Shown here piece by piece: positions 4,654 through 52,458 of a DNA stretch of 64,000 bases. The notes beneath the pieces were generated by a model that was not told the DNA's origin, ran no database searches, and worked only from the letters and a program-made list of their open reading frames with translations. A program made the position numbers and the translations under genes. The DNA is taken from the NCBI RefSeq assembly GCF_056712565.1, contig NZ_CM160072.1; one strand, given 5' to 3'. Every line of letters starts with the position of its first letter. Position 1 is the first letter of the stretch.

Positions 4654-6669
4654 TCAGTGAAAAAATTGCCATTGCGTTATGCGATCGCGCAGACGCTCAG
4701 TGCGAACATCATCAAGTGCGAATAGCGCCTGCGCGGCCTCTTCCCGCTGGCGAACCAGTAACAGCTTACGGCCTGAAAGTTTAAGTGTGGTACATAACTG
4801 CGCGTCACTGGCGTTTTTCTGTAAACGCCCACGCAGCGCCGGTAATGCCAGTTCGCTGGTTTGTAGCAAACGCAATAAGCAACCTAACGATGTTAATAGC
4901 GGACGATGAGTGAAAGCAAAACCGGCCAGTTCAAGCCAGTCGTCGTCAGAAAGGACGGCATCGTTTAGTGGATCAACAGGAAGCATTTCGCCATTCCACT
5001 GCGCGAGAGCTTGCGCATCGCGACGTAAACGGTAATGCTCACGTTCAGCCAGTTGTTTACCCGCATCACTCATCGGTAACAGCGCCATCGCCGTATAGCA
5101 ACCGCTGCTGGCTTCACGATGATTACCCATTCGCACCAGCACAAAACCGCAGCGTTGCCAGAAACGCCATAACTCCTCGGTGTAACCAAAACTCACCGAA
5201 AGATAGTCGAGGTCATGAATATATTGCAAAGCACCAGCAATCAGTTGCTGACCTGTGCCTTCCCGCTGACGAGCCGGATGAACTGCTATTCGGCTGACCC
5301 GCCTTCCGCGCAATGTCGCCGCCAGTGGATTGCTGCCGTGCGCCGCCAGCGACTGGGCCACCAGATTACCCCGCGGGCGACGAAAACCTGCCCATACCGC
5401 CTGACTGAGTTCTTGAGATAATCCGCCCTCATCCACCAGCCACAGCGCCCCGGCAATCTCGTTTTCGCCAGCCGCCTGTAAAAAATGTTGACCTGGTGCA
5501 TCCATCATGCGGCGTAAATCCAGCGGCGAAGTCCGGTAGTGCGCACCAGACAATAATTGATAAACCTTTAACGGCGTTTCTGGCTCGCTTCGCCATAACG
5601 TCTGTTCAAATGCGGAAATAACGATATTGCCTTGTGGTGTATGGGTGAAGTTTTCATCGTCAAACACCAGTGCCTCACTAACCATTTTTTCCAGCGGGCA
5701 TCCCTGCGCCCAACGGATCGGCTGTTGTAGTTCAAAACGGTGTAAATGCGGAAAGCGAGCGCAAAATTTCAGCAAAAAACCACGTCCGGTGCCTTCGTAG
5801 CCCTGCACCGTAGTGGTTAACAACGTTCGAGGAAAACGCGATACCAGTTGATACAACAACGGCGCAGGTATAGCTGCGGCTTCATCGACCACCAGCCAGT
5901 CGGCTTGCTCATCGCTGGCTAACAAGGCATCCGGTGCAATAAAGCGAAACTTCTCACCCGCAAATTGTGCCAGTACATCCGTTGCCGCTTTTGCGGGCGC
6001 GGTGACAATCGCACTGCCCGCAATACGAGAAATGAGTTGCCCTGCCAACGCCGACTTACCGCGCCCACGCGCAGCAGTTACCGCTGCCACGCCCGGCGGC
6101 ATGGTCAGTAGCTGCTGTAAGAGTTGCTGTTGTTCTGGTTGTGGTGCGCCGGTAGCGGGGTGCCAGTCAGTACGGGGAGTAAAATGCGCCAACGAGAACG
6201 GCTGGTTTTGCCGCCAGAGGATAGCGTCGTTATTCGCCGTAAGTACGCGTTTGAAATGCTGGACAAAATGCGGCGTCGCAATAGGGTCAGGGCAATCACT
6301 CCAGCGCAGCGAGTCGGCATCAGGTTGGTTTTCCCACTCATCCCATACAGGGAGTAACAACACCAGCCAGCTTCCCGCTTTCAACGTTCCGCTAAGTGCC
6401 GCAAAGGCAGCGGCATCAAAGCCTTGGCGGGCGTCGAATACCGCATGCCGGAACTCGCGCCCAAGTAAAGTTTGTAGTGCCGAGGGAGAACAGTGGTTTT
6501 CAGCATCTGGCTGCGGCGAAATCCACAGCCAGTCGCCAGGTAAGGCATCACGCAACTTAAGCGCATGATCAAAACACCAACGCTCTTCCCCGCTCAACAC
6601 CAGCAAGCGGCGGATCCCTTCACGTTTCATTTGCGCTGTTAATGTGTGAAGCGCAGTCAGTTCAGCCAT
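4654..6669 (-). CDS. tmcA: tRNA(Met) cytidine acetyltransferase TmcA
   Basis: 671-aa ORF, helicase-like ATPase plus GNAT domain, synteny. Confidence 0.9.
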   Translation of the reverse strand: MAELTALHTLTAQMKREGIRRLLVLSGEERWCFDHALKLRDALPGDWLWISPQPDAENHCSPSALQTLLGREFRHAVFDARQGFDAAAFAALSGTLKAGSWLVLLLPVWDEWENQPDADSLRWSDCPDPIATPHFVQHFKRVLTANNDAILWRQNQPFSLAHFTPRTDWHPATGAPQPEQQQLLQQLLTMPPGVAAVTAARGRGKSALAGQLISRIAGSAIVTAPAKAATDVLAQFAGEKFRFIAPDALLASDEQADWLVVDEAAAIPAPLLYQLVSRFPRTLLTTTVQGYEGTGRGFLLKFCARFPHLHRFELQQPIRWAQGCPLEKMVSEALVFDDENFTHTPQGNIVISAFEQTLWRSEPETPLKVYQLLSGAHYRTSPLDLRRMMDAPGQHFLQAAGENEIAGALWLVDEGGLSQELSQAVWAGFRRPRGNLVAQSLAAHGSNPLAATLRGRRVSRIAVHPARQREGTGQQLIAGALQYIHDLDYLSVSFGYTEELWRFWQRCGFVLVRMGNHREASSGCYTAMALLPMSDAGKQLAEREHYRLRRDAQALAQWNGEMLPVDPLNDAVLSDDDWLELAGFAFTHRPLLTSLGCLLRLLQTSELALPALRGRLQKNASDAQLCTTLKLSGRKLLLVRQREEAAQALFALDDVRTERLRDRITQWQFFH

Positions 6670-26827: not shown

Positions 26828-27346
26828 GTGATGAAATTTAAAAAATGTCTTCTGCCTGTGGCAATGTTAGCGTCATTCACTCTGGCAGGATGCCAGTCAA
26901 ATGCTGATGATCATGCCGCCGATGTTTATCAAACCGATCAACTGAATACCAAACAAGAAACTAAAACCGTTAATATTATTTCCATTCTTCCCGCAAAAGT
27001 TGCCGTAGACAACGCCCAAAATAAACGGAACGCACAAGCCTTCGGCGCGCTTATTGGCGCTGTCGCTGGCGGTGTTATCGGCCACAACGTCGGGTCTGGC
27101 AGCAATTCCGGAACGACGGCAGGTGCAGTTGGCGGCGGAGCTGTAGGCGCGGCAGCGGGTTCTATGGTGAATGATAAAACCTTAGTGGAAGGTGTTTCTT
27201 TAACATATAAGGAAGGCACCAAAGTGTATACCTCCACCCAGGTGGGTAAAGAGTGCCAGTTTACGACAGGTTTAGCCGTTGTTATTACCACGACGTATAA
27301 CGAAACGCGTATTCAGCCAAATACCAAATGTCCTGAAAAGAGCTAA
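26828..27346 (+). CDS. yfgH: Outer membrane lipoprotein YfgH (glycine-zipper)
   Basis: Lipobox LAGC; Gly-rich GxxxG repeats. Confidence 0.85.
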   Translation: MMKFKKCLLPVAMLASFTLAGCQSNADDHAADVYQTDQLNTKQETKTVNIISILPAKVAVDNAQNKRNAQAFGALIGAVAGGVIGHNVGSGSNSGTTAGAVGGGAVGAAAGSMVNDKTLVEGVSLTYKEGTKVYTSTQVGKECQFTTGLAVVITTTYNETRIQPNTKCPEKS

Positions 27347-27361
27347 TAATCAGGAGGAGTC

Positions 27362-27901
27362 ATGAAGAAAGTTTTTCTTTGCGCCATCTTAGCCTCCTTA
27401 AGCTATCCGGCTATCGCCTCATCATTGCAGGATCAACTCTCGGCTGTCGCAGAAGCGGAACAGCAAGGTAAAAATGAAGAGCAAAGGCAGCATGACGAAT
27501 GGGTCGCGGAGCGCAACAGGGAAATCCAGCAAGAGAAGCAACGTCGCGCAAACGCCCAGGCCGCGGCTAATAAAAGAGCGGCAACGGCAGCAGCGAATAA
27601 GAAAGCTCGTCAGGATAAACTGGACGCCGAAGCCACTGCGGACAAAAAACGCGATCAAAGTTATGAAGATGAGCTACGTAGCTTAGAGATTCAGAAACAA
27701 AAACTGGCGCTGGCGAAAGAAGAAGCCCGCGTCAAGCGCGAAAACGAATTTATCGATCAGGAACTGAAGCACAAAGCTGCGCAAACCGATGTGGTGCAAT
27801 CTGAAGCTGACGCAAACAGAAATATGACTGAAGGCGGTCGCGATCTGATGAAAAGCGTGGGTAAAGCAGAAGAGAATAAATCAGATAGCTGGTTTAACTA
27901 A
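27362..27901 (+). CDS. yfgI: Secreted coiled-coil protein YfgI
   Basis: 179 aa, signal peptide, charged coiled-coil. Confidence 0.85.
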   Translation: MKKVFLCAILASLSYPAIASSLQDQLSAVAEAEQQGKNEEQRQHDEWVAERNREIQQEKQRRANAQAAANKRAATAAANKKARQDKLDAEATADKKRDQSYEDELRSLEIQKQKLALAKEEARVKRENEFIDQELKHKAAQTDVVQSEADANRNMTEGGRDLMKSVGKAEENKSDSWFN

Positions 27902-27946
27902 ACGATGTTAGTAACTTCAAACCTATAATTCTTTAGGATAAAAAAA

Positions 27947-27973
27947 CCCTCTGTAGTAACAGAGGGTTTTGTT
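27947..27973. terminator. Bidirectional rho-independent terminator (yfgI / original guaA)
   Basis: A-run, CCCTCTG-tagtaa-CAGAGGG, TTTTGTT. Confidence 0.6.
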
Positions 27974-29446: not shown

Positions 29447-29744
29447 GTTTAGACCTCGATACTTTAAAAATTTGAACGACGTTACCGCGCGTTTTAATAA
29501 CCGCAGCCAGCATGACAGCGTTGATAATGACCTCAGATAAATCCACAGCCATTGGCGTACGTAACCAGATTGCATAGGCGACTCGAACAGGAATACTGGC
29601 CGCAGCAACAATCAGGAAATAAGCAAGCCATCCTCCCCACCTTCGATGTTGAGAGCCGTTACGCCGGAATGTGACAACGCGAATTGCTATGCCAGTGCAA
29701 ATAACTGCATTGGTGATAAGCAAAAAAAACTCATGCGTTACCAT
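29436..29744 (-). CDS. Lysis-cassette membrane protein (holin or antiholin candidate)
   Basis: 102 aa, about 3 TM segments, overlaps endolysin start. Confidence 0.5.
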
Positions 29745-30135
29745 CGTCTTTTCTCCCCGGAATTAACTCGCGTGGATTATCGGAACGGTGATAGAGCCAT
29801 ATACCAATACGCACAGCGACAATTGCTGACACGAATGCGCCTGCAGAGAAAACAATCCCTTTTTCAAAAGAGTCCTGCGTGATGGTAGGGATCAGGCTGG
29901 CTATGCCGATAAGAATTGATGCTGCTGGTTTGTAAAAGAGAAGGCCACAAAGAAAGCTGAGCATCGAAAGGAGCACCCGGCGACGGATGGGGTACTCTAC
30001 TGCAGAGGTAACAAAAATTACCGCCCCAGCCAAAGCCCCTAAAGCAACCTCCGGAGGGACACCTGCAATAACCGCAGCAAGAGAACTAAAACTAAGCAAC
30101 TGATTTAATTGCTCACTTGTTACTTGAGCAGACAT
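29731..30135 (-). CDS. Holin-like membrane protein
   Basis: 134 aa, about 4 TM segments, charged C-terminus, first gene of lysis cassette. Confidence 0.5.
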   Translation of the reverse strand: MSAQVTSEQLNQLLSFSSLAAVIAGVPPEVALGALAGAVIFVTSAVEYPIRRRVLLSMLSFLCGLLFYKPAASILIGIASLIPTITQDSFEKGIVFSAGAFVSAIVAVRIGIWLYHRSDNPRELIPGRKDDGNA

Positions 30136-30416
30136 ACTTTCTCCTGTTTACTATCTATAAGCCAGTCAATTATTGATGACTAACTTCGCATAGTAAACCA
30201 TATATGAATCATTATTGTTCCATATCATATATCTCAATAAAAGTACTAATGATTTTACAGAACGAGCCAGCAGAGTGAGGGCAGTTGTACAGGAACCATA
30301 GACTTAATTTTGTATTTAATAATGCTATGGTGTAATAAACCTGAACATGTATTTAAAATACGTACTGATTCATGATAGAATTCAAAGATAACTTTTCACA
30401 AACTCCGTTTTTGATA

Positions 30417-30445
30417 CCCGCAAAATATTGCGGGCTTTTTTTTAA
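30417..30445 (+). terminator. Plus-strand rho-independent terminator abutting tailspike stop
   Basis: CCCGCAAAATATTGCGGG followed by CTTTTTTTTT. Confidence 0.4.
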
Positions 30446-33400
30446 CGTTCTTCCAGAGACTGAATCCGCTCTTTTATCTTATCCATTTCTCTGCGCTGCC
30501 ATGCTGCCTCGATATAGAATAAGAGATCAGGTCTGACCCCCCATCTAGATCCTGCTGGCGTTATTTCAACGCGCTCAATGATGTCTTCTATTACCATCAC
30601 TGGATTATCATCCTCATCAACAATGATGCTCCCGTCATTATCAGTCAGCGGCATTTCCCTTTGGCCAGTAATGACGTCATCATATACTGCGGGATAATCG
30701 TCATAGCAAAGAAAGGCATAGCGGCATGTTGTGCTTTCTTCTTCCATGAGTCCGTGAGAAATAAGAACATCACGAAGTTGCTGCGCGATTACACCATGAT
30801 GTATCCTCGCCCCTTCTTCCCCCTTTATAGCGACAGCGTTCAGCCATTTATAAGCGATATACCTGACGTCACCCCAGGCATCCAGCAATGCTTCGTCAGG
30901 AGAGACCGGCTCTGTCTTTAATGTTCCGTCACTGGTAACCACAGGATTGGAGCCAAGATAAACTGTCGAGAACCTGTTTCCCGGACCACCAAGAGCATTT
31001 ACATTATCAAGATAAGGTTTAACATCTCCGTTCTCAAAAAGATGTTCGAGTGCGTTATATACCGCGCGACGTGGAGTACTGCTTCCGGAACCATGCAACG
31101 TTATCATTGCACCATCTGCTGAAGACGTTGTTTCACCTCCGCTAACGATTAATCTCTGAGCGGTAACATCATCAGACGGTACTTTCTTCGCAATAATGGC
31201 GTAATTACCCTCAAGTTTGACTTCCGCGCGAACTTGTCCTGATGTACCTGCATGGACAGTCAGTGACTGGACGGCAACATCATCTGTGAAATCAACGGGT
31301 ACAGGAACCGTCCTCACGCCTGACGTCGACATAAAAGTAGGAAGCGTTCTGTTAGGAGTGGCTCCGTAGACAAAATCCCTTGAAACAAATTCTTCCTGTT
31401 TAATTTTCACCCTGAAACAATACAAATCAGCCGGGTGACCATCGTGAACATAAGGATATTTTCTGTTGTTATCCCCTATGCTCCATGGGTTTAGAAAGTC
31501 TTCCCCACCGAAAATGTAGTACAGCCAGTTGTCTTTGATACAAACTGAACCAACACCAACCGCAGAGTTAACTATTCCGCCCTGATAAATCTGATCAGTA
31601 ACATTAACCCACTCTACATTATCCAGACTCCACTCATTGACGTTAACTCTGGTCATAAATGTTCTTGGATAATTTCCTGCATAACGGTTATCAGGTTCTC
31701 CTCCTTCCCACTCACCAAATGCGCGCTCACTGCCAAAAATAATCAGCTCATCGCCAACTTTGGCAAAAGGAAGGTTTGAGTGATGAACATTATTTGGGAA
31801 GCGAAGAGAATTCCATGATGTACCTAAATCAGAGCTTCTGTGCAATGAACTACCGGGTTGAGTACTTAATGTCCCCCTGGTCGTCAGATACAGAATGCCA
31901 TCATAATATTTTACACATGGCTCAGATGCATTCGCCTCATATTCTGCAGGTATGCGTCTGCGAACAAAGCTACCAGGAGAACCGAAAGCATCAGAGAAAT
32001 AGAGTATCCCAAGCTCGCGTGGACCAATATCACCATTATGGTAGCCAACAGCAAAACTGTTATCGCTAATCGTCGCAAAACTGTGAATCTCAGTAACAGG
32101 AGTGCTTCCGTCAACAAAAGAAGGAATAGTTCCAAGACTGGTTTTTCTCCATGGTGACGAGTGAAATGATGTACCAAAACTCCAGTATCTACCCTCGTTA
32201 TTCTGATCCACATCCTGAGTATTTTGCGTCGTAACTGTAAAAGTATTTTTATCAATAACAGTAGTCACCGTCATATTCCCGGTAACACCTGTAACACCAG
32301 AGTTTGAGAAGTTGACAAAATCACCAGCAAATAATCCGTGATCAGTAATGCGAATATAAGCGACTTGCTGATTTGCTGCTTTCGTTATACCACCATAAAC
32401 GCGAAGGCTGCGACTCATTGGGCGATCCCACAACTCTGCAACCTGCAGTTTATTTCCTCTCACGGTCCGCGTCTCAATTACAGCAAAAAGGCGATTTCTG
32501 ACAACCCCCATACTCATGCAGTGATAGTTAACTGTGGGATAGTTTTCATGTAAATCTGTAAGCCATTCCGGCGTTGTCCAGGTCTTCCCGTCATCTCCTG
32601 AGCGAACCCATGCAACATGGAGGTTATTTACACCATGGCGGTCTCCAGCCATAAAAGGCGCATAGATGACATTGTCATATACAAACGTTTTATCCTGCGT
32701 CCAGGCGTTGTACCACGGTGTATCTGTAATTTTAAATAACTCTCCCTGGATAAAATCTTCAGAAGCATAAAAAAGAGGCTGGCCCGGTATTCTCTCAAAT
32801 AAAAAACGAGCATTTTTAAATCGACTGACATCCGGAAGAGTTGATACTTTAAAAGTAAGCCCTAATCCGTCAATTTTATAACCTGGAGATGAGGCTTCAA
32901 GGCACGCGCTTATTGCAGTGGAATCGTCATTTATACCATCACCAACAGCTCCAAAATCTTTGGGGCTAATAGCATCACGCATTTTATCCTGGAACGTTCG
33001 GTACACAGCCCCAGAACCATACTGAATAAACCAACCAAAACCACCAACAACCCCGGCGATTGCAGCATCGACATAATTACGCATTGAGCGATTATTTACA
33101 GCGTCCTGCTCAAATGATGGATCTGCAAGGTTAGAAATTTTGTTTTGCTTTGCATCGTAATATTTTGCAAGCAAAGATGGTTTCATCAATGCACGTCTGA
33201 ACCACCCAAAACATTGCTGGATCAGCATCGTCAGGTAGTCAAAGGCATCTTCATGCACTTCGGGGAAAAATTTTCCCTGATTGCGAAGGTCTGTCTCCTG
33301 CACTACATCAAGCACACGATCTATCGTAATTCGCCATCCAGTAGCAAGCGGAGACGGAAGAACCACAGAACCGCCACTATAAGTGCCCGCCCCAGTTACC

Positions 33401-33561
33401 GTATAACCGGTATCCAGGACCAATTCTGTTACGTTCCCGTTCAGGTCAGACACCTGAACAACCAGGTCTGATTTTCTGAAAATTCGAAAAGTATACGGAA
33501 ACGATGTCGTAACGCCGTTACCGGTGTATTCGTTGTGGTCAACTTCGGTTGAGACCGTCAT
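30442..33561 (-). CDS. Tailspike protein with Asp-box (BNR) beta-propeller-type central domain
   Basis: 1039 aa; conserved phage tail-fibre N-terminal domain; two SxDxGxTW motifs (SGDDGKTW, SSDLGTSW); RBS GGAG. Confidence 0.8.
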   Translation of the reverse strand: MTVSTEVDHNEYTGNGVTTSFPYTFRIFRKSDLVVQVSDLNGNVTELVLDTGYTVTGAGTYSGGSVVLPSPLATGWRITIDRVLDVVQETDLRNQGKFFPEVHEDAFDYLTMLIQQCFGWFRRALMKPSLLAKYYDAKQNKISNLADPSFEQDAVNNRSMRNYVDAAIAGVVGGFGWFIQYGSGAVYRTFQDKMRDAISPKDFGAVGDGINDDSTAISACLEASSPGYKIDGLGLTFKVSTLPDVSRFKNARFLFERIPGQPLFYASEDFIQGELFKITDTPWYNAWTQDKTFVYDNVIYAPFMAGDRHGVNNLHVAWVRSGDDGKTWTTPEWLTDLHENYPTVNYHCMSMGVVRNRLFAVIETRTVRGNKLQVAELWDRPMSRSLRVYGGITKAANQQVAYIRITDHGLFAGDFVNFSNSGVTGVTGNMTVTTVIDKNTFTVTTQNTQDVDQNNEGRYWSFGTSFHSSPWRKTSLGTIPSFVDGSTPVTEIHSFATISDNSFAVGYHNGDIGPRELGILYFSDAFGSPGSFVRRRIPAEYEANASEPCVKYYDGILYLTTRGTLSTQPGSSLHRSSDLGTSWNSLRFPNNVHHSNLPFAKVGDELIIFGSERAFGEWEGGEPDNRYAGNYPRTFMTRVNVNEWSLDNVEWVNVTDQIYQGGIVNSAVGVGSVCIKDNWLYYIFGGEDFLNPWSIGDNNRKYPYVHDGHPADLYCFRVKIKQEEFVSRDFVYGATPNRTLPTFMSTSGVRTVPVPVDFTDDVAVQSLTVHAGTSGQVRAEVKLEGNYAIIAKKVPSDDVTAQRLIVSGGETTSSADGAMITLHGSGSSTPRRAVYNALEHLFENGDVKPYLDNVNALGGPGNRFSTVYLGSNPVVTSDGTLKTEPVSPDEALLDAWGDVRYIAYKWLNAVAIKGEEGARIHHGVIAQQLRDVLISHGLMEEESTTCRYAFLCYDDYPAVYDDVITGQREMPLTDNDGSIIVDEDDNPVMVIEDIIERVEITPAGSRWGVRPDLLFYIEAAWQRREMDKIKERIQSLEER

Positions 33562-33665
33562 GTTAAATCTCCAGATAGTCGCAGCACCCGTTGCGCCGCA
33601 TATCTGGTTATTCTATTACCTGAAAAACCACATATGGATAAAAGGACTATAAATACCAATAGATA

Positions 33666-52390: not shown

Positions 52391-52458
52391 ATCAATGACT
52401 CCGTACGCAATTAAATTATTACCAATTTAACCACATATGATTTATTTATCGTAGAAGG

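Follow-up and report, generated by a model that had tools for sequence, protein, structure and literature searches.

A plus-strand terminator and a predicted short RNA in the ORF-free spacer beside the endosialidase tailspike of K1-specific Uetakevirus prophages

There is a gap in the annotation of an epsilon15/phiV10-like (Uetakevirus) prophage, a temperate podophage specific for the E. coli K1 capsule, and the question raised by this locus is whether the DNA between its lysis cassette and its tailspike gene encodes a small regulatory RNA or serves its neighbours in some other way. The gap covers 306 bp (30136-30441) of the window, by which we mean the whole stretch of 64,000 nucleotides that was analysed. 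RefSeq and GenBank annotation leave it empty and place a putative holin, a holin, a GH19 endolysin and an Rz-like protein on one flank and the endosialidase tailspike on the other, in agreement with the genes named in a preliminary description of this DNA. The same description had reported an AT-rich spacer of about 300 bp without ORFs, and our analysis confirmed this. The GC content is approximately 30% (0.30-0.35), compared with 0.43-0.59 in the flanks, ORF enumeration revealed no ORF of at least 30 aa lying entirely within the spacer, and no ORF of at least 8 aa on either of its strands was preceded by a credible Shine-Dalgarno sequence. A 54-aa plus-strand ORF at 30372-30536 was rejected as a gene because it crosses the terminator described below and because a T8/T9 length polymorphism shifts its frame.

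Architecture of the spacer and its place in the genus

The spacer is composed of three parts, namely a lysis leader (30136-30207), lineage DNA (30208-30416) and a terminator (30417-30443). The features within and around it are the following.

29731-30135, minus strand: first lysis gene, an epsilon15 gp23-like membrane protein called "putative holin" (from the ORF and the RefSeq/GenBank annotation)
30141-30145, minus strand: Shine-Dalgarno sequence AGGAG of the first lysis gene, read from the sequence and aligning with GGTGG in relatives
30146-30198, minus strand: conserved hairpin of the lysis-mRNA leader, an inverted repeat with 9-bp perfect arms (30190-30198/30146-30154) and an inner stem-loop
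30194-30207, minus strand: conserved motif TCATATATGGTTTA, the upstream element of the Uetakevirus lysis promoter
30208-30416, no strand: AT-rich, non-coding segment specific to the K1 lineage, occupying the serotype-conversion (moron) slot
30208-30237, minus strand: second minus-strand promoter-like site, TTGAGA-18-AATGAT, with a predicted start at ~30201
30352-30381, plus strand: sigma70 promoter-like site, TTTAAA-18-TGaTAGAAT, with a TG-extended -10 element at 30376-30381
30372-30401, minus strand: promoter-like site, TTGTGA (30401-30396), an 18-nt spacer and TATCAT (30377-30372)
30388-30443, plus strand: predicted RNA of ~56 nt, placed by the positions of the promoter-like site and the terminator
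30417-30443, plus strand: predicted intrinsic terminator with stem 30417-30423/30428-30434, loop AATA, a C, and U-tract 30436-30443
30442-33561, minus strand: endosialidase tailspike with a Uetakevirus-conserved N-terminal part of ~230 aa, a K1-specific catalytic part and a C-terminal chaperone domain, an architecture described for phage vB_EcoP_ZX5 (PMC9782041)

The left part of the spacer, approximately 70 bp (30136-30207), is conserved, and the remaining ~235 bp is exclusive to the K1 lineage. The product of the first lysis gene is 91-99% identical to the gp23 homologues of phiV10, epsilon15 and TL-2011b. In the leader of this gene, a 13-pair helix was 91% paired in 33 distinct Uetakevirus leaders, compared with 32-58% for slid controls; the helix was specified by hand and its pairs were counted, as RNAalifold alone gave almost nothing. 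It shows GC<->AU covariation and contains many G.U pairs that are possible only on the minus strand, and the corresponding stretch is annotated in the epsilon15 record as a site for RNase III. At the upstream end of the leader, relatives carry the palindrome CCATATATGG where the K1 type has the motif listed above. In phiV10, the same upstream element belongs to a promoter matching 10 of 12 consensus positions (TTAACC-17-TATAAT), and the K1 equivalents of its hexamers are GATTCA, and CGAAGT or CGGGTT. As judged from these equivalents, the K1 lineage has lost the conserved lysis-promoter hexamers, both the -35 and the -10 element having decayed.

Among 80 related loci, the interval between the tailspike and gp23 spans 72 to 2258 bp and contains opposite-strand acyltransferase or O-antigen genes of 329-646 aa, small ORFs on the late strand, or nothing. 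In phiV10 and epsilon15 it is occupied by oac and by gp21/gp22, respectively, on the strand opposite to the late genes. By position and gene content, the interval is a variable serotype-conversion (moron) slot, which in the K1 lineage is without a protein gene. With other tailspike types, the slot also holds 111-325 bp of unrelated ORF-free DNA, and no equivalent promoter-terminator unit was found in these other ORF-free slot types. Relatives have hairpin terminators 4-38 nt past the tailspike stop codon that are late-strand or bidirectional, and in one of them a bidirectional terminator closes a convergent 329-aa gene. Furthermore, phiV10 possesses an intact lysis promoter and a late-strand terminator after the tailspike, whereas the K1 type has neither.

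Of 5426 complete E. coli genomes, 71 carry a K1-specific Uetakevirus prophage, and most of these genomes come from extra-intestinal K1 isolates. The lineage-specific spacer DNA was found only beside the endosialidase tailspike; the lysis leader and the N-terminal ~230 aa of the tailspike are common to the genus, while the spacer DNA tracks the K1 receptor-binding part. Searches with the ~235 bp of lineage DNA retrieved no homologue from 50,697 phage records, for which hits up to E = 5 were considered, no match in other Uetakevirus slots, and no match downstream of CUS-3-type endosialidase genes, where neuO sits. A decayed slot gene was considered and rejected, as none of 882 slot peptides from relatives scored above 20 bits when compared with the spacer by tblastn.

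The plus-strand terminator and the promoter-like sites

We compared the promoter-like hexamer pairs and terminator-like sites in a 310-bp region with those in dinucleotide shuffles of the same region. A single terminator-like site was present, against 0.1 +/- 0.2 in the shuffles, and there were six hexamer pairs, against 1.6 +/- 1.4. Both the hairpin with a T-run on the plus strand, where no plus-strand gene exists, and the many -10/-35-like hexamers on the two strands, which the preliminary description had pointed out, were thus recovered.

The predicted terminator reads CCCGCAA-AATA-TTGCGGG on the plus strand, followed by C and T8. Its stem has 7 bp, 5 of them GC, its loop has 4 nt, the hairpin has a predicted energy of -11.2 kcal/mol, and the U8 overlaps the tailspike stop codon (30442-30444). 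In the minus-strand reading, A8 stands before the hairpin and UAUCAAAAAC, which is not a U-tract, comes after it, so that the hairpin is a terminator in the plus direction only. No variant that disrupts the stem was present in the 13 haplotypes and 4 divergent genomes examined. Other positions of the element do vary: one haplotype carries an inverted loop (AATA/TATT), the A30416G haplotype has a stem lengthened to 8 bp, and the T-run after the stem comprises 8 or 9 residues in every copy examined. The terminator is predicted to end transcripts of the plus strand.

Four of the six hexamer pairs lie on the minus strand, and the remaining two are alternative registers of a single plus-strand site. 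Every one of these sites matches the consensus at only 9 of 12 positions, a degree of matching that AT-rich DNA commonly gives. The plus-strand site has a predicted start at ~30388 and is located 55-60 nt upstream of the terminator end; its -10 element and TG are unchanged in all copies examined, and its -35 element is TTCAAA in one genome. The TAGAAT of this site and the TATCAT of the minus-strand site at 30372-30401 share 2 bp, such that positions 1 and 2 of each hexamer pair mutually, and the predicted divergent starts are ~23 bp apart at overlapping -10 elements. An overlapping opposite-strand -10 geometry has been reported to yield divergent transcription, and a start separation of 23 bp is listed as enriched among symmetric bidirectional-promoter configurations (Warman et al., bioRxiv 10.1101/2020.01.31.928960). 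The spacer site, which is known from prediction alone, shares with the bidirectional sigma70 promoters of that study both the -10 overlap and the spacing. Transcription from the second minus-strand site would place the entire leader hairpin in the transcript. The prophage contains 10 exact operator-like TTACC-N5-GGTAA palindromes, none of them in the spacer and one upstream of the tailspike promoter motif. The predicted promoters may fire.

The predicted RNA and the explanations for the unit

The 56-nt RNA delimited by the plus-strand site and the terminator is predicted to consist of a mostly unstructured 5' part of 29 nt with an anti-SD-like CUCCG, followed by the terminator hairpin and U8, and to fold at -12.7 kcal/mol (z = -3.5). 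By sequence, it has the hallmarks of an Hfq module, namely a U-rich UUUUUGAUA (UUUUU) just 5' of the hairpin and a tail of U8-9. The preliminary description had proposed a candidate sRNA at this locus. An extended -10 site, a canonical terminator and an Hfq-type 3' end make a discrete plus-strand transcription unit plausible, while only the promoter and terminator grammar speaks for a regulatory sRNA, which is a possible but less likely reading. The further proposal that such an RNA would be antisense to the 5' region of the holin or to the lysis promoter was not supported, as the predicted RNA avoids both. No plus-strand promoter-like site was found at or to the left of the holin start, and the predicted RNA therefore does not overlap the 5' end of the holin; it would be antisense to nothing beyond the tailspike stop codon and the intercistronic RNA between the tailspike and the lysis genes.

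To place the candidate among known RNAs, we scanned 5 kb and 381 bp against Rfam 15 with permissive E-values, and no family matched the candidate at its gathering threshold. The best sub-threshold scores, both driven by the terminator, were 21.3 bits for Arrc14 (threshold 99) and 14 bits for GcvB (threshold 42). The spacer receives no mention in the paper on vB_EcoP_ZX5 (PMC9782041), and neither does any terminator or sRNA; a broad search of the literature on Uetakevirus and its members epsilon15 and phiV10 for small RNAs retrieved nothing relevant and no report of an RNA at this locus. With all copies of the locus 96-100% identical, conservation speaks neither for nor against a function. The segment of the candidate RNA is the most variable one, with 8.9 segregating sites per 100 nt compared with 1.6-2.7 in the flanking genes, and a SNP of intermediate frequency, A30400C, is found within the seed in 6 of 13 haplotypes. 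No purifying selection on the candidate RNA was visible, at an overall diversity too low for the test to inform.

The explanation that we favour, though tentatively and at a little under an even chance, is that the terminator acts as an insulator, keeping rightward transcription that starts in the slot out of the tailspike gene, with the lysis genes being transcribed by read-through from the tailspike. In such a scenario, late transcription from the repressor-controlled tailspike promoter would pass leftward through the hairpin, since there is no U-tract on the minus strand, and continue into the lysis genes; we infer this late read-through from the fact that the K1 type is without a late-strand terminator. 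The overlapping -10 elements at 30372-30381 may act as a sigma70 bidirectional promoter, and rightward transcription from the AT-rich slot would halt within ~56 nt, before its antisense entry into the tailspike gene. Because rightward transcription would be stopped so soon, the short RNA (~30388-30443) would most likely be a terminated divergent transcript. The K1 terminator would also correspond in position to the convergent terminators that close the opposite-strand conversion genes of relatives. Taken with the decay of the lysis promoter, the arrangement suggests that the lysis genes of the K1 lineage are read through from the tailspike promoter.

Besides the commonness of such promoter-like matches in AT-rich DNA, three points speak against the insulator model. 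First, a 56-nt RNA leaves ~165 bp of the lineage DNA (30208-30371) unexplained. Second, the strong terminator, the long U-tail and the U-rich 5' flank exceed a minimal insulator and resemble the 3' end of an sRNA. Third, the terminator may be a passive relic that arrived with the tailspike module.

The last of these points leads to an explanation that is unlikely but deserves consideration, in which the terminator and its AT-rich flank are a functionless relic of a former opposite-strand gene, a neighbour of the endosialidase module in an ancestor or a donor phage, imported by exchange of the tailspike module. The strict association of the lineage DNA with the K1 receptor-binding part of the tailspike is consistent with this, as are the unrelated ORF-free slots of other tailspike types and the invisibility of purifying selection. 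In addition, surface-polysaccharide genes usually have a low GC content, and a GC content of ~30% would suit an origin from such genes. However, no coding remnant was recognisable by comparison with the slot proteins of relatives, no donor sequence was found in the phage or E. coli collections, and the CUS-3-type endosialidase, although 97% identical, differs in its last few codons and in its downstream region, which carries neuO. Moreover, the terminator is still perfect in all copies, even in a prophage with a tailspike cut by an IS3 element.

It is improbable, in our view, that the spacer is an ORF-less moron encoding a trans-acting Hfq-type sRNA that replaces the protein conversion genes and whose 29-nt 5' part pairs with host or phage mRNAs. 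The promoter-plus-terminator grammar, in the orientation of the prophage-expressed conversion genes of phiV10 and epsilon15, would fit such an RNA, and so would the single-stranded 5' part, the UUUUU before the hairpin, the U8-9 tail and a slot without a repressor operator. Relatives cope with a junction of 72 bp, so the extra ~235 bp is dispensable for the lysis genes. Nevertheless, the RNA belongs to no Rfam family, no copy outside the prophage exists in the 5426 E. coli genomes or the 50,697 phage records, and the candidate segment is the most polymorphic one, with A30400C inside the seed. The search for trans targets in the 64-kb window gave a best pairing of -18.3, compared with a shuffled-seed mean of -18.4. 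When both strands of ~246 kb of IAI39 were scanned, the two best pairings of the 5' part were with the sense RNA of kps region 1 (-22.2 and -22.8 kcal/mol), one of which includes 11 contiguous bp; CUCCGUUU forms the core of the predicted pairing, and A30400C falls at an unpaired position. Approximately 6-7% of shuffled seeds reach the same pairing (p ~0.06), and this weak lead is thus not significant. That the ~56-nt RNA pairs with the kps region-1 (kpsF-kpsE/kpsE) mRNA of the K1 capsule operon and brings about RNA-based lysogenic conversion or superinfection exclusion at the polysialic-acid receptor is very improbable. A unit expressed from the prophage would nevertheless fit the orientation, the promoter and terminator grammar, and a slot in which no repressor operator lies.

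Another doubtful explanation is a cis-antisense regulator like lambda OOP, in which a duplex of ~56 bp with the read-through late mRNA would be cleaved by RNase III and would damp or uncouple the lysis genes. The roles proposed for such a regulator are to prevent leaky lysis in lysogens, as a safety lock, or to time lysis. If the K1-type lysis promoter is dead, the predicted RNA would be a perfect complement of the sole RNA able to carry lysis-gene expression, and a short promoter-to-terminator RNA that runs against the upstream phage gene and overlaps its 3' end does resemble OOP; the annotators of epsilon15 have also already proposed RNase III processing in the leader. However, the overlap with the tailspike coding sequence is restricted to the stop codon, the predicted RNA lies more than 250 nt from the start of the lysis gene and leaves the ribosome-binding site and the conserved leader hairpin untouched, and relatives with other tailspikes have no equivalent unit.

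Finally, the hairpin might act on the minus strand alone, stabilising the 3' end of the tailspike mRNA or serving as a processing site in it, with a plus-strand T-run that is incidental because it is complementary to an A-run behind the stop codon. This would agree with its location 7 nt past the tailspike stop codon (at 8-25 nt), with its 8 pairs on the minus strand and the -15.1 kcal/mol of a 51-nt minus-strand segment that contains it, and with the stronger folding of the whole spacer on the minus strand (z = -3.7) than on the plus strand (z = -1.7) relative to shuffles. It is nevertheless highly improbable, as no role is known on that strand for A8-9 ahead of a GC hairpin while the complement is a textbook terminator, most relatives have true late-strand terminators at the same spot, and the T-run stays at 8-9 in all copies.

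Significance and comparison with known systems

The terminator marks the moron slot of the K1-specific Uetakevirus prophages. If it is an insulator or a relic, the unit represents ordinary phage genome grammar, and its value lies mainly in annotation. Should the short RNA be produced and have a function, the spacer would be a moron with an RNA cargo in a slot otherwise used for receptor-modifying enzymes, and it would provide a testable prophage link to the control of the K1 capsule or of lysis in neonatal-meningitis and avian-pathogenic strains.

DicF, AgvB and AsxR are prophage-encoded Hfq-dependent sRNAs or anti-sRNAs of E. coli. The predicted RNA shares with them its location in a prophage, a size of ~50-60 nt, a U-rich stretch together with a terminator having a long U-tail, and a single-stranded 5' region; it differs from them in that it has no Rfam homology, a seed with a common SNP and no significant target. 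Lambda OOP RNA, of 77 nt, and P22 sar RNA are short phage antisense RNAs that extend from a promoter to an intrinsic terminator. The predicted K1 RNA is in a similar size class, runs opposite to the flanking phage genes, has a 3' end that adjoins or overlaps that of the upstream gene and would likewise form a perfect duplex with a read-through mRNA. However, there is no sequence relationship, and the predicted RNA overlaps a stop codon only, not the coding 3' end or a ribosome-binding site.

The morons described by Hendrix and colleagues are autonomous promoter-gene-terminator units inserted between phage genes. The K1 spacer likewise lies between conserved genes, is absent from close relatives and has a deviant composition, and it combines a predicted sigma70-like promoter with a factor-independent terminator and no phage repressor operator, whereas its "gene" would be at most the predicted 56-nt RNA. 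The closest comparison is with the Uetakevirus slots themselves, which hold gp21/gp22 in epsilon15, oac in phiV10 and an O-acetyltransferase gene in TL-2011b. The K1 slot has no protein gene, its similarity to theirs is limited to the ~70-bp lysis leader, and its terminator serves the anti-late strand only, while those of relatives are late-strand or bidirectional. Nevertheless, it occupies the same position, shares a low GC content and the presence of a hairpin terminator near the tailspike stop codon, and its predicted unit faces against the late genes, as do the conversion genes of phiV10 and epsilon15.

The spacer and its flanking genes

The DNA between the first lysis gene and the endosialidase tailspike gene had been described, in a preliminary description, as an AT-rich spacer of about 300 bp without an ORF, carrying many promoter-like hexamers and ending in a plus-strand hairpin followed by a T-run, and our analysis bore out each of these points. 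The spacer (30136-30441) is 306 bp long, with a GC content of 0.30-0.35 vs. 0.43-0.59 around it. It contains no ORF of at least 30 aa, no smaller one preceded by a credible ribosome-binding site and no annotated RefSeq feature. Six promoter-like hexamer pairs were counted, vs. 1.6 +/- 1.4 when the same AT-rich sequence was shuffled, and there is a single terminator-like site, on the plus strand, where 0.1 would be expected.

Genes flanking the spacer
29731-30135, minus strand: membrane protein of 134 aa, annotated 'putative holin'
30442-33561, minus strand: tailspike of 1039 aa

RefSeq lists a putative holin, a holin, a GH19 endolysin and a DUF2514 (Rz-like) protein on the lysis side. Because the tailspike is annotated as an 'endosialidase catalytic beta-propeller domain-containing protein', the phage is specific for the K1 polysialic-acid capsule. 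Matching DNA, 96-100% identical, was found at 74 places, all chromosomal, in 71 of 5426 complete E. coli genomes, and also in vB_EcoP_ZX5, a temperate Uetakevirus (epsilon15/phiV10-like podophage) whose tailspike domains have been described with the spacer unmentioned (PMC9782041). Two of the prophages are decaying: in 23CRST038 (NZ_AP045810.1; locus L135, 606-905), the tailspike gene is reduced to a 204-bp 3' remnant, with an IS3-family transposase gene starting about 55 bp beyond, and in CUVET20-PYO2 (NZ_CP115386.1; locus L132, 403-706), it carries a frameshift. In both, spacer and terminator have remained intact.

Past the Rz-like gene, two plus-strand ORFs (26828-27346 and 27362-27901) are present in the window, laid out as in TL-2011b (compared loci: L001, 16451-17701, and L005, 7018-8088), whose record names the corresponding ORFs a DUF5384 protein and a small 'DNA methyltransferase'. 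ZX5 and the GPEC1337 prophage, otherwise identical, have an integrase gene at that place, and the prophage end thus appears mosaic. A 12-bp hairpin between an A-run and a T-run (27943-27970), placed between the two ORFs and the convergent Rz-like gene, the last of the lysis cassette, would be a candidate bidirectional terminator.

Module exchange and the lysis leader

We gathered 80 related loci via the gp23-like protein (the putative holin) and added the annotated records of phiV10, epsilon15, TL-2011b and phiv142-3. The interval from tailspike to gp23 ranged from 72 to 2258 bp and varied more than any other part of this genome region. Common to all types were the N-terminal ~230 aa of the tailspike and the last ~70 bp before gp23, the DNA between them being swapped as one module. 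In the K1 type, the lineage with the endosialidase tailspike, this slot measured 306-308 bp in every case. Its lineage-specific part (30208-30441) was restricted to the endosialidase module and showed no similarity to any other phage in a search of phage records, and comparison with the slot proteins of relatives revealed no trace of a decayed slot gene in the spacer. CUS-3-type K1 prophages encode an endosialidase 97% identical to the K1-type one, but it differs from a few codons before the stop and neuO follows; this diverging 3' end and neuO downstream ruled them out as the source of 30208-30441.

The left end of the spacer (30136-30207, minus strand) is conserved across the genus and comprises the Shine-Dalgarno sequence of the first lysis gene, a hairpin that abuts it with its 3' arm, and a motif, (C/T)CATATATGGTTTA.

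Leader, motif and palindrome sites
30146-30198, minus strand: conserved leader RNA hairpin of 13 pairs, also in L003, L004 and 30 other loci of the leader alignment (A2)
30194-30207, minus strand: motif CATAT(A/G)TGGTT, upstream of the lysis cassette
33624-33637, minus strand: the same motif, upstream of the tailspike gene
52427-52440, minus strand: the same motif, third site
33666, 34046, 35086, 52481, 55640, 58557, 58619, 60950, 61662 and 61724: exact 15-bp TTACC-N5-GGTAA sites

The 13-pair hairpin was specified by hand, RNAalifold alone having missed the helix, and its pairs were counted over 33 distinct sequences; it was 91% paired vs. 32-58% for slid controls. One position was GC in 14 sequences and AU in 13, indicating covariation, and many pairs were U.G or G.U, formable only in the minus-strand (late) RNA. 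The corresponding stretch of the epsilon15 GenBank record is labelled an RNase III site. Most non-K1 leaders (A2 columns 71-90; L003 about 4968-4990) have a conserved ATG inside the hairpin, after GGGGG or AGGAGG and not in the gp23 frame; in phiV10, an upstream ORF of six codons (MHSKRW) starts from it. This ATG is absent from the K1 type.

The CATAT(A/G)TGGTT motif (6 matches vs. 1.25 expected) is followed about 9 nt on by TAATAG, TAATAA or a TATAAT-like hexamer, and in phiV10, the leader motif and the TATAAT after it form a 10/12 promoter, TTAACC-17-TATAAT. Since further copies lie before the tailspike gene and at 52427-52440, the motif probably marks the late promoters, and with the hexamer it may be the phage's late-promoter signature. 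In most relatives, a late-strand or bidirectional terminator lies 4-38 nt past the tailspike stop and the lysis promoter is retained. The K1 type lacks both a late-strand terminator after the tailspike and an intact lysis promoter: its two hexamers are now GATTCA and CGAAGT or CGGGTT, and the downstream hexamer of the motif is lost. A terminator is also missing from the type with a 72-bp interval, whose hexamer has decayed to CGCGGT. Most economically, transcription of the K1-type lysis genes would come from the tailspike promoter by read-through. Of the ten exact, operator-like TTACC-N5-GGTAA palindromes of the prophage (16 with at most one mismatch in the window, vs. 1.1 expected), one belongs to this promoter and none lies within the spacer; the homologous palindrome upstream of the epsilon15 tailspike gene is recorded as a repressor-binding site.

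The predicted plus-strand RNA

Predicted elements at the right end of the spacer
30352-30381, plus strand: promoter-like site TTTAAA-18-TAGAAT with a TG extension, the sole one on this strand in or near the spacer
30401-30372, minus strand: promoter-like site TTGTGA-18-TATCAT
30417-30434, plus strand: terminator stem-loop CCCGCAA-AATA-TTGCGGG, then C, then T8 at 30436-30443

The -10 elements of the two promoter-like sites (TAGAAT and TATCAT) overlap by 2 bp, and the predicted starts, at about 30388 (plus) and about 30365 (minus), are 23 bp apart, one of the symmetric spacings at which divergent transcription is enriched (Warman et al., bioRxiv 10.1101/2020.01.31.928960). The terminator hairpin (-11.2 kcal/mol) is followed by a T-run that overlaps the tailspike stop codon. 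Together, the promoter-like site and the terminator predict a 56-nt RNA (30388-30443). Its elements would be a 5' part of 29 nt, mostly open and with an anti-SD-like CUCCG, a UUUUU stretch, the hairpin and a U8-9 tail. An RNA here had been proposed to run antisense to the holin 5' region or the lysis promoter. The predicted RNA would reach neither the holin start nor the lysis leader, and further to the left there is no promoter-like site on the plus strand, so that this proposal is unsupported. Its antisense partners would be the tailspike stop codon and the intercistronic RNA.

The candidate RNA matched no Rfam family, and the plus-strand unit was absent outside this prophage in E. coli genomes and phage records. 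Among 13 haplotypes, it had 8.9 variable sites per 100 nt, compared with 1.6 in the 3' part of the tailspike gene, 2.2-2.3 in the remaining lineage-specific DNA and 2.7 in the holin gene. A SNP in the 5' part, A30400C, was present in 6 of the 13 haplotypes; further variants were A30416G, which lengthens the stem, T8/T9, and an inversion of the loop at 30424-30427 (AATA vs. TATT) that leaves the stem unaltered, is linked to A30400C and characterizes one common haplotype (L010, L011, L013, L018 and L132-L135). To judge from its form, this inversion is a signature of template switching within the hairpin. The -10 was invariant, the -35 was changed to TTCAAA in one genome, and the stem was unbroken in all copies, which is not significant because divergence is so small. 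A further reading, which we consider rather unlikely, is that the unit is a functionless relic imported with the tailspike module.

A functional trans-acting sRNA seems doubtful. Inside the window, no pairing of the 5' part was better than that of shuffled seeds. Because the slot elsewhere holds genes modifying the phage's own receptor, the K1 capsule (kps) cluster of IAI39, a strain with this prophage, was scanned as a target.

Predicted pairing sites in kps region 1 (L138, the IAI39 kps cluster)
1198-1225, sense: kpsF-kpsE junction, 46-73 nt upstream of the kpsE start, -22.2 kcal/mol
1853-1874, sense: inside kpsE, -22.8 kcal/mol, 11 contiguous pairs (CAGAAACGGAG with CUCCGUUUUUG)

The scan covered ~246 kb of IAI39 (both strands), and these two were the best predicted pairings in it; ~200 kb (both strands) from other parts of IAI39 yielded none at or below -21. 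Position 30400 is unpaired in both duplexes. On the kps sense strand, shuffled seeds reached -22.8 or better in 5 of 68 trials and in 4 of 68 produced at least two windows scoring -22 or better, so that the pairings are not significant (p about 0.06), and a third site at -22.2 sits on the non-sense strand. We therefore treat kps pairing as a lead and not as evidence. Capsule region 1 of IAI39 begins with kpsF (L138 999-1199), annotated as a fragment truncated at its N terminus; just upstream are a fragment of an IS3-family transposase and the reverse-transcriptase gene of a group II intron.

The spacer as a proposed conversion slot

We tentatively favor the reading that the spacer is an ORF-less serotype-conversion (moron) slot with an orientation-specific terminator at its right end. 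The terminator would let tailspike-to-lysis transcription through, and transcripts heading rightward from the AT-rich slot would end there before running antisense into the tailspike gene; the ~56-nt RNA would be the product of that termination. The predicted overlap with the tailspike stop codon and intercistronic RNA could belong to an OOP-like cis-antisense regulator of the read-through mRNA, which appears improbable. That the hairpin matters for the minus-strand mRNA only is very improbable. Read on that strand, it has A8 before it and UAUCAAAAAC after it, and therefore is no terminator for the late genes.

All five readings, the conversion slot included, invoke known kinds of phage features, and the sequence itself was previously undescribed and unannotated. 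The K1-type slot holds no ORF. In phiV10, the slot carries the O-acetyltransferase gene oac, and in epsilon15, the O-antigen polymerase and alpha-polymerase inhibitor genes, in each case on the opposite strand; other types contain opposite-strand genes of 329-646 aa or late-strand ORFs of 99-107 aa, or are empty.
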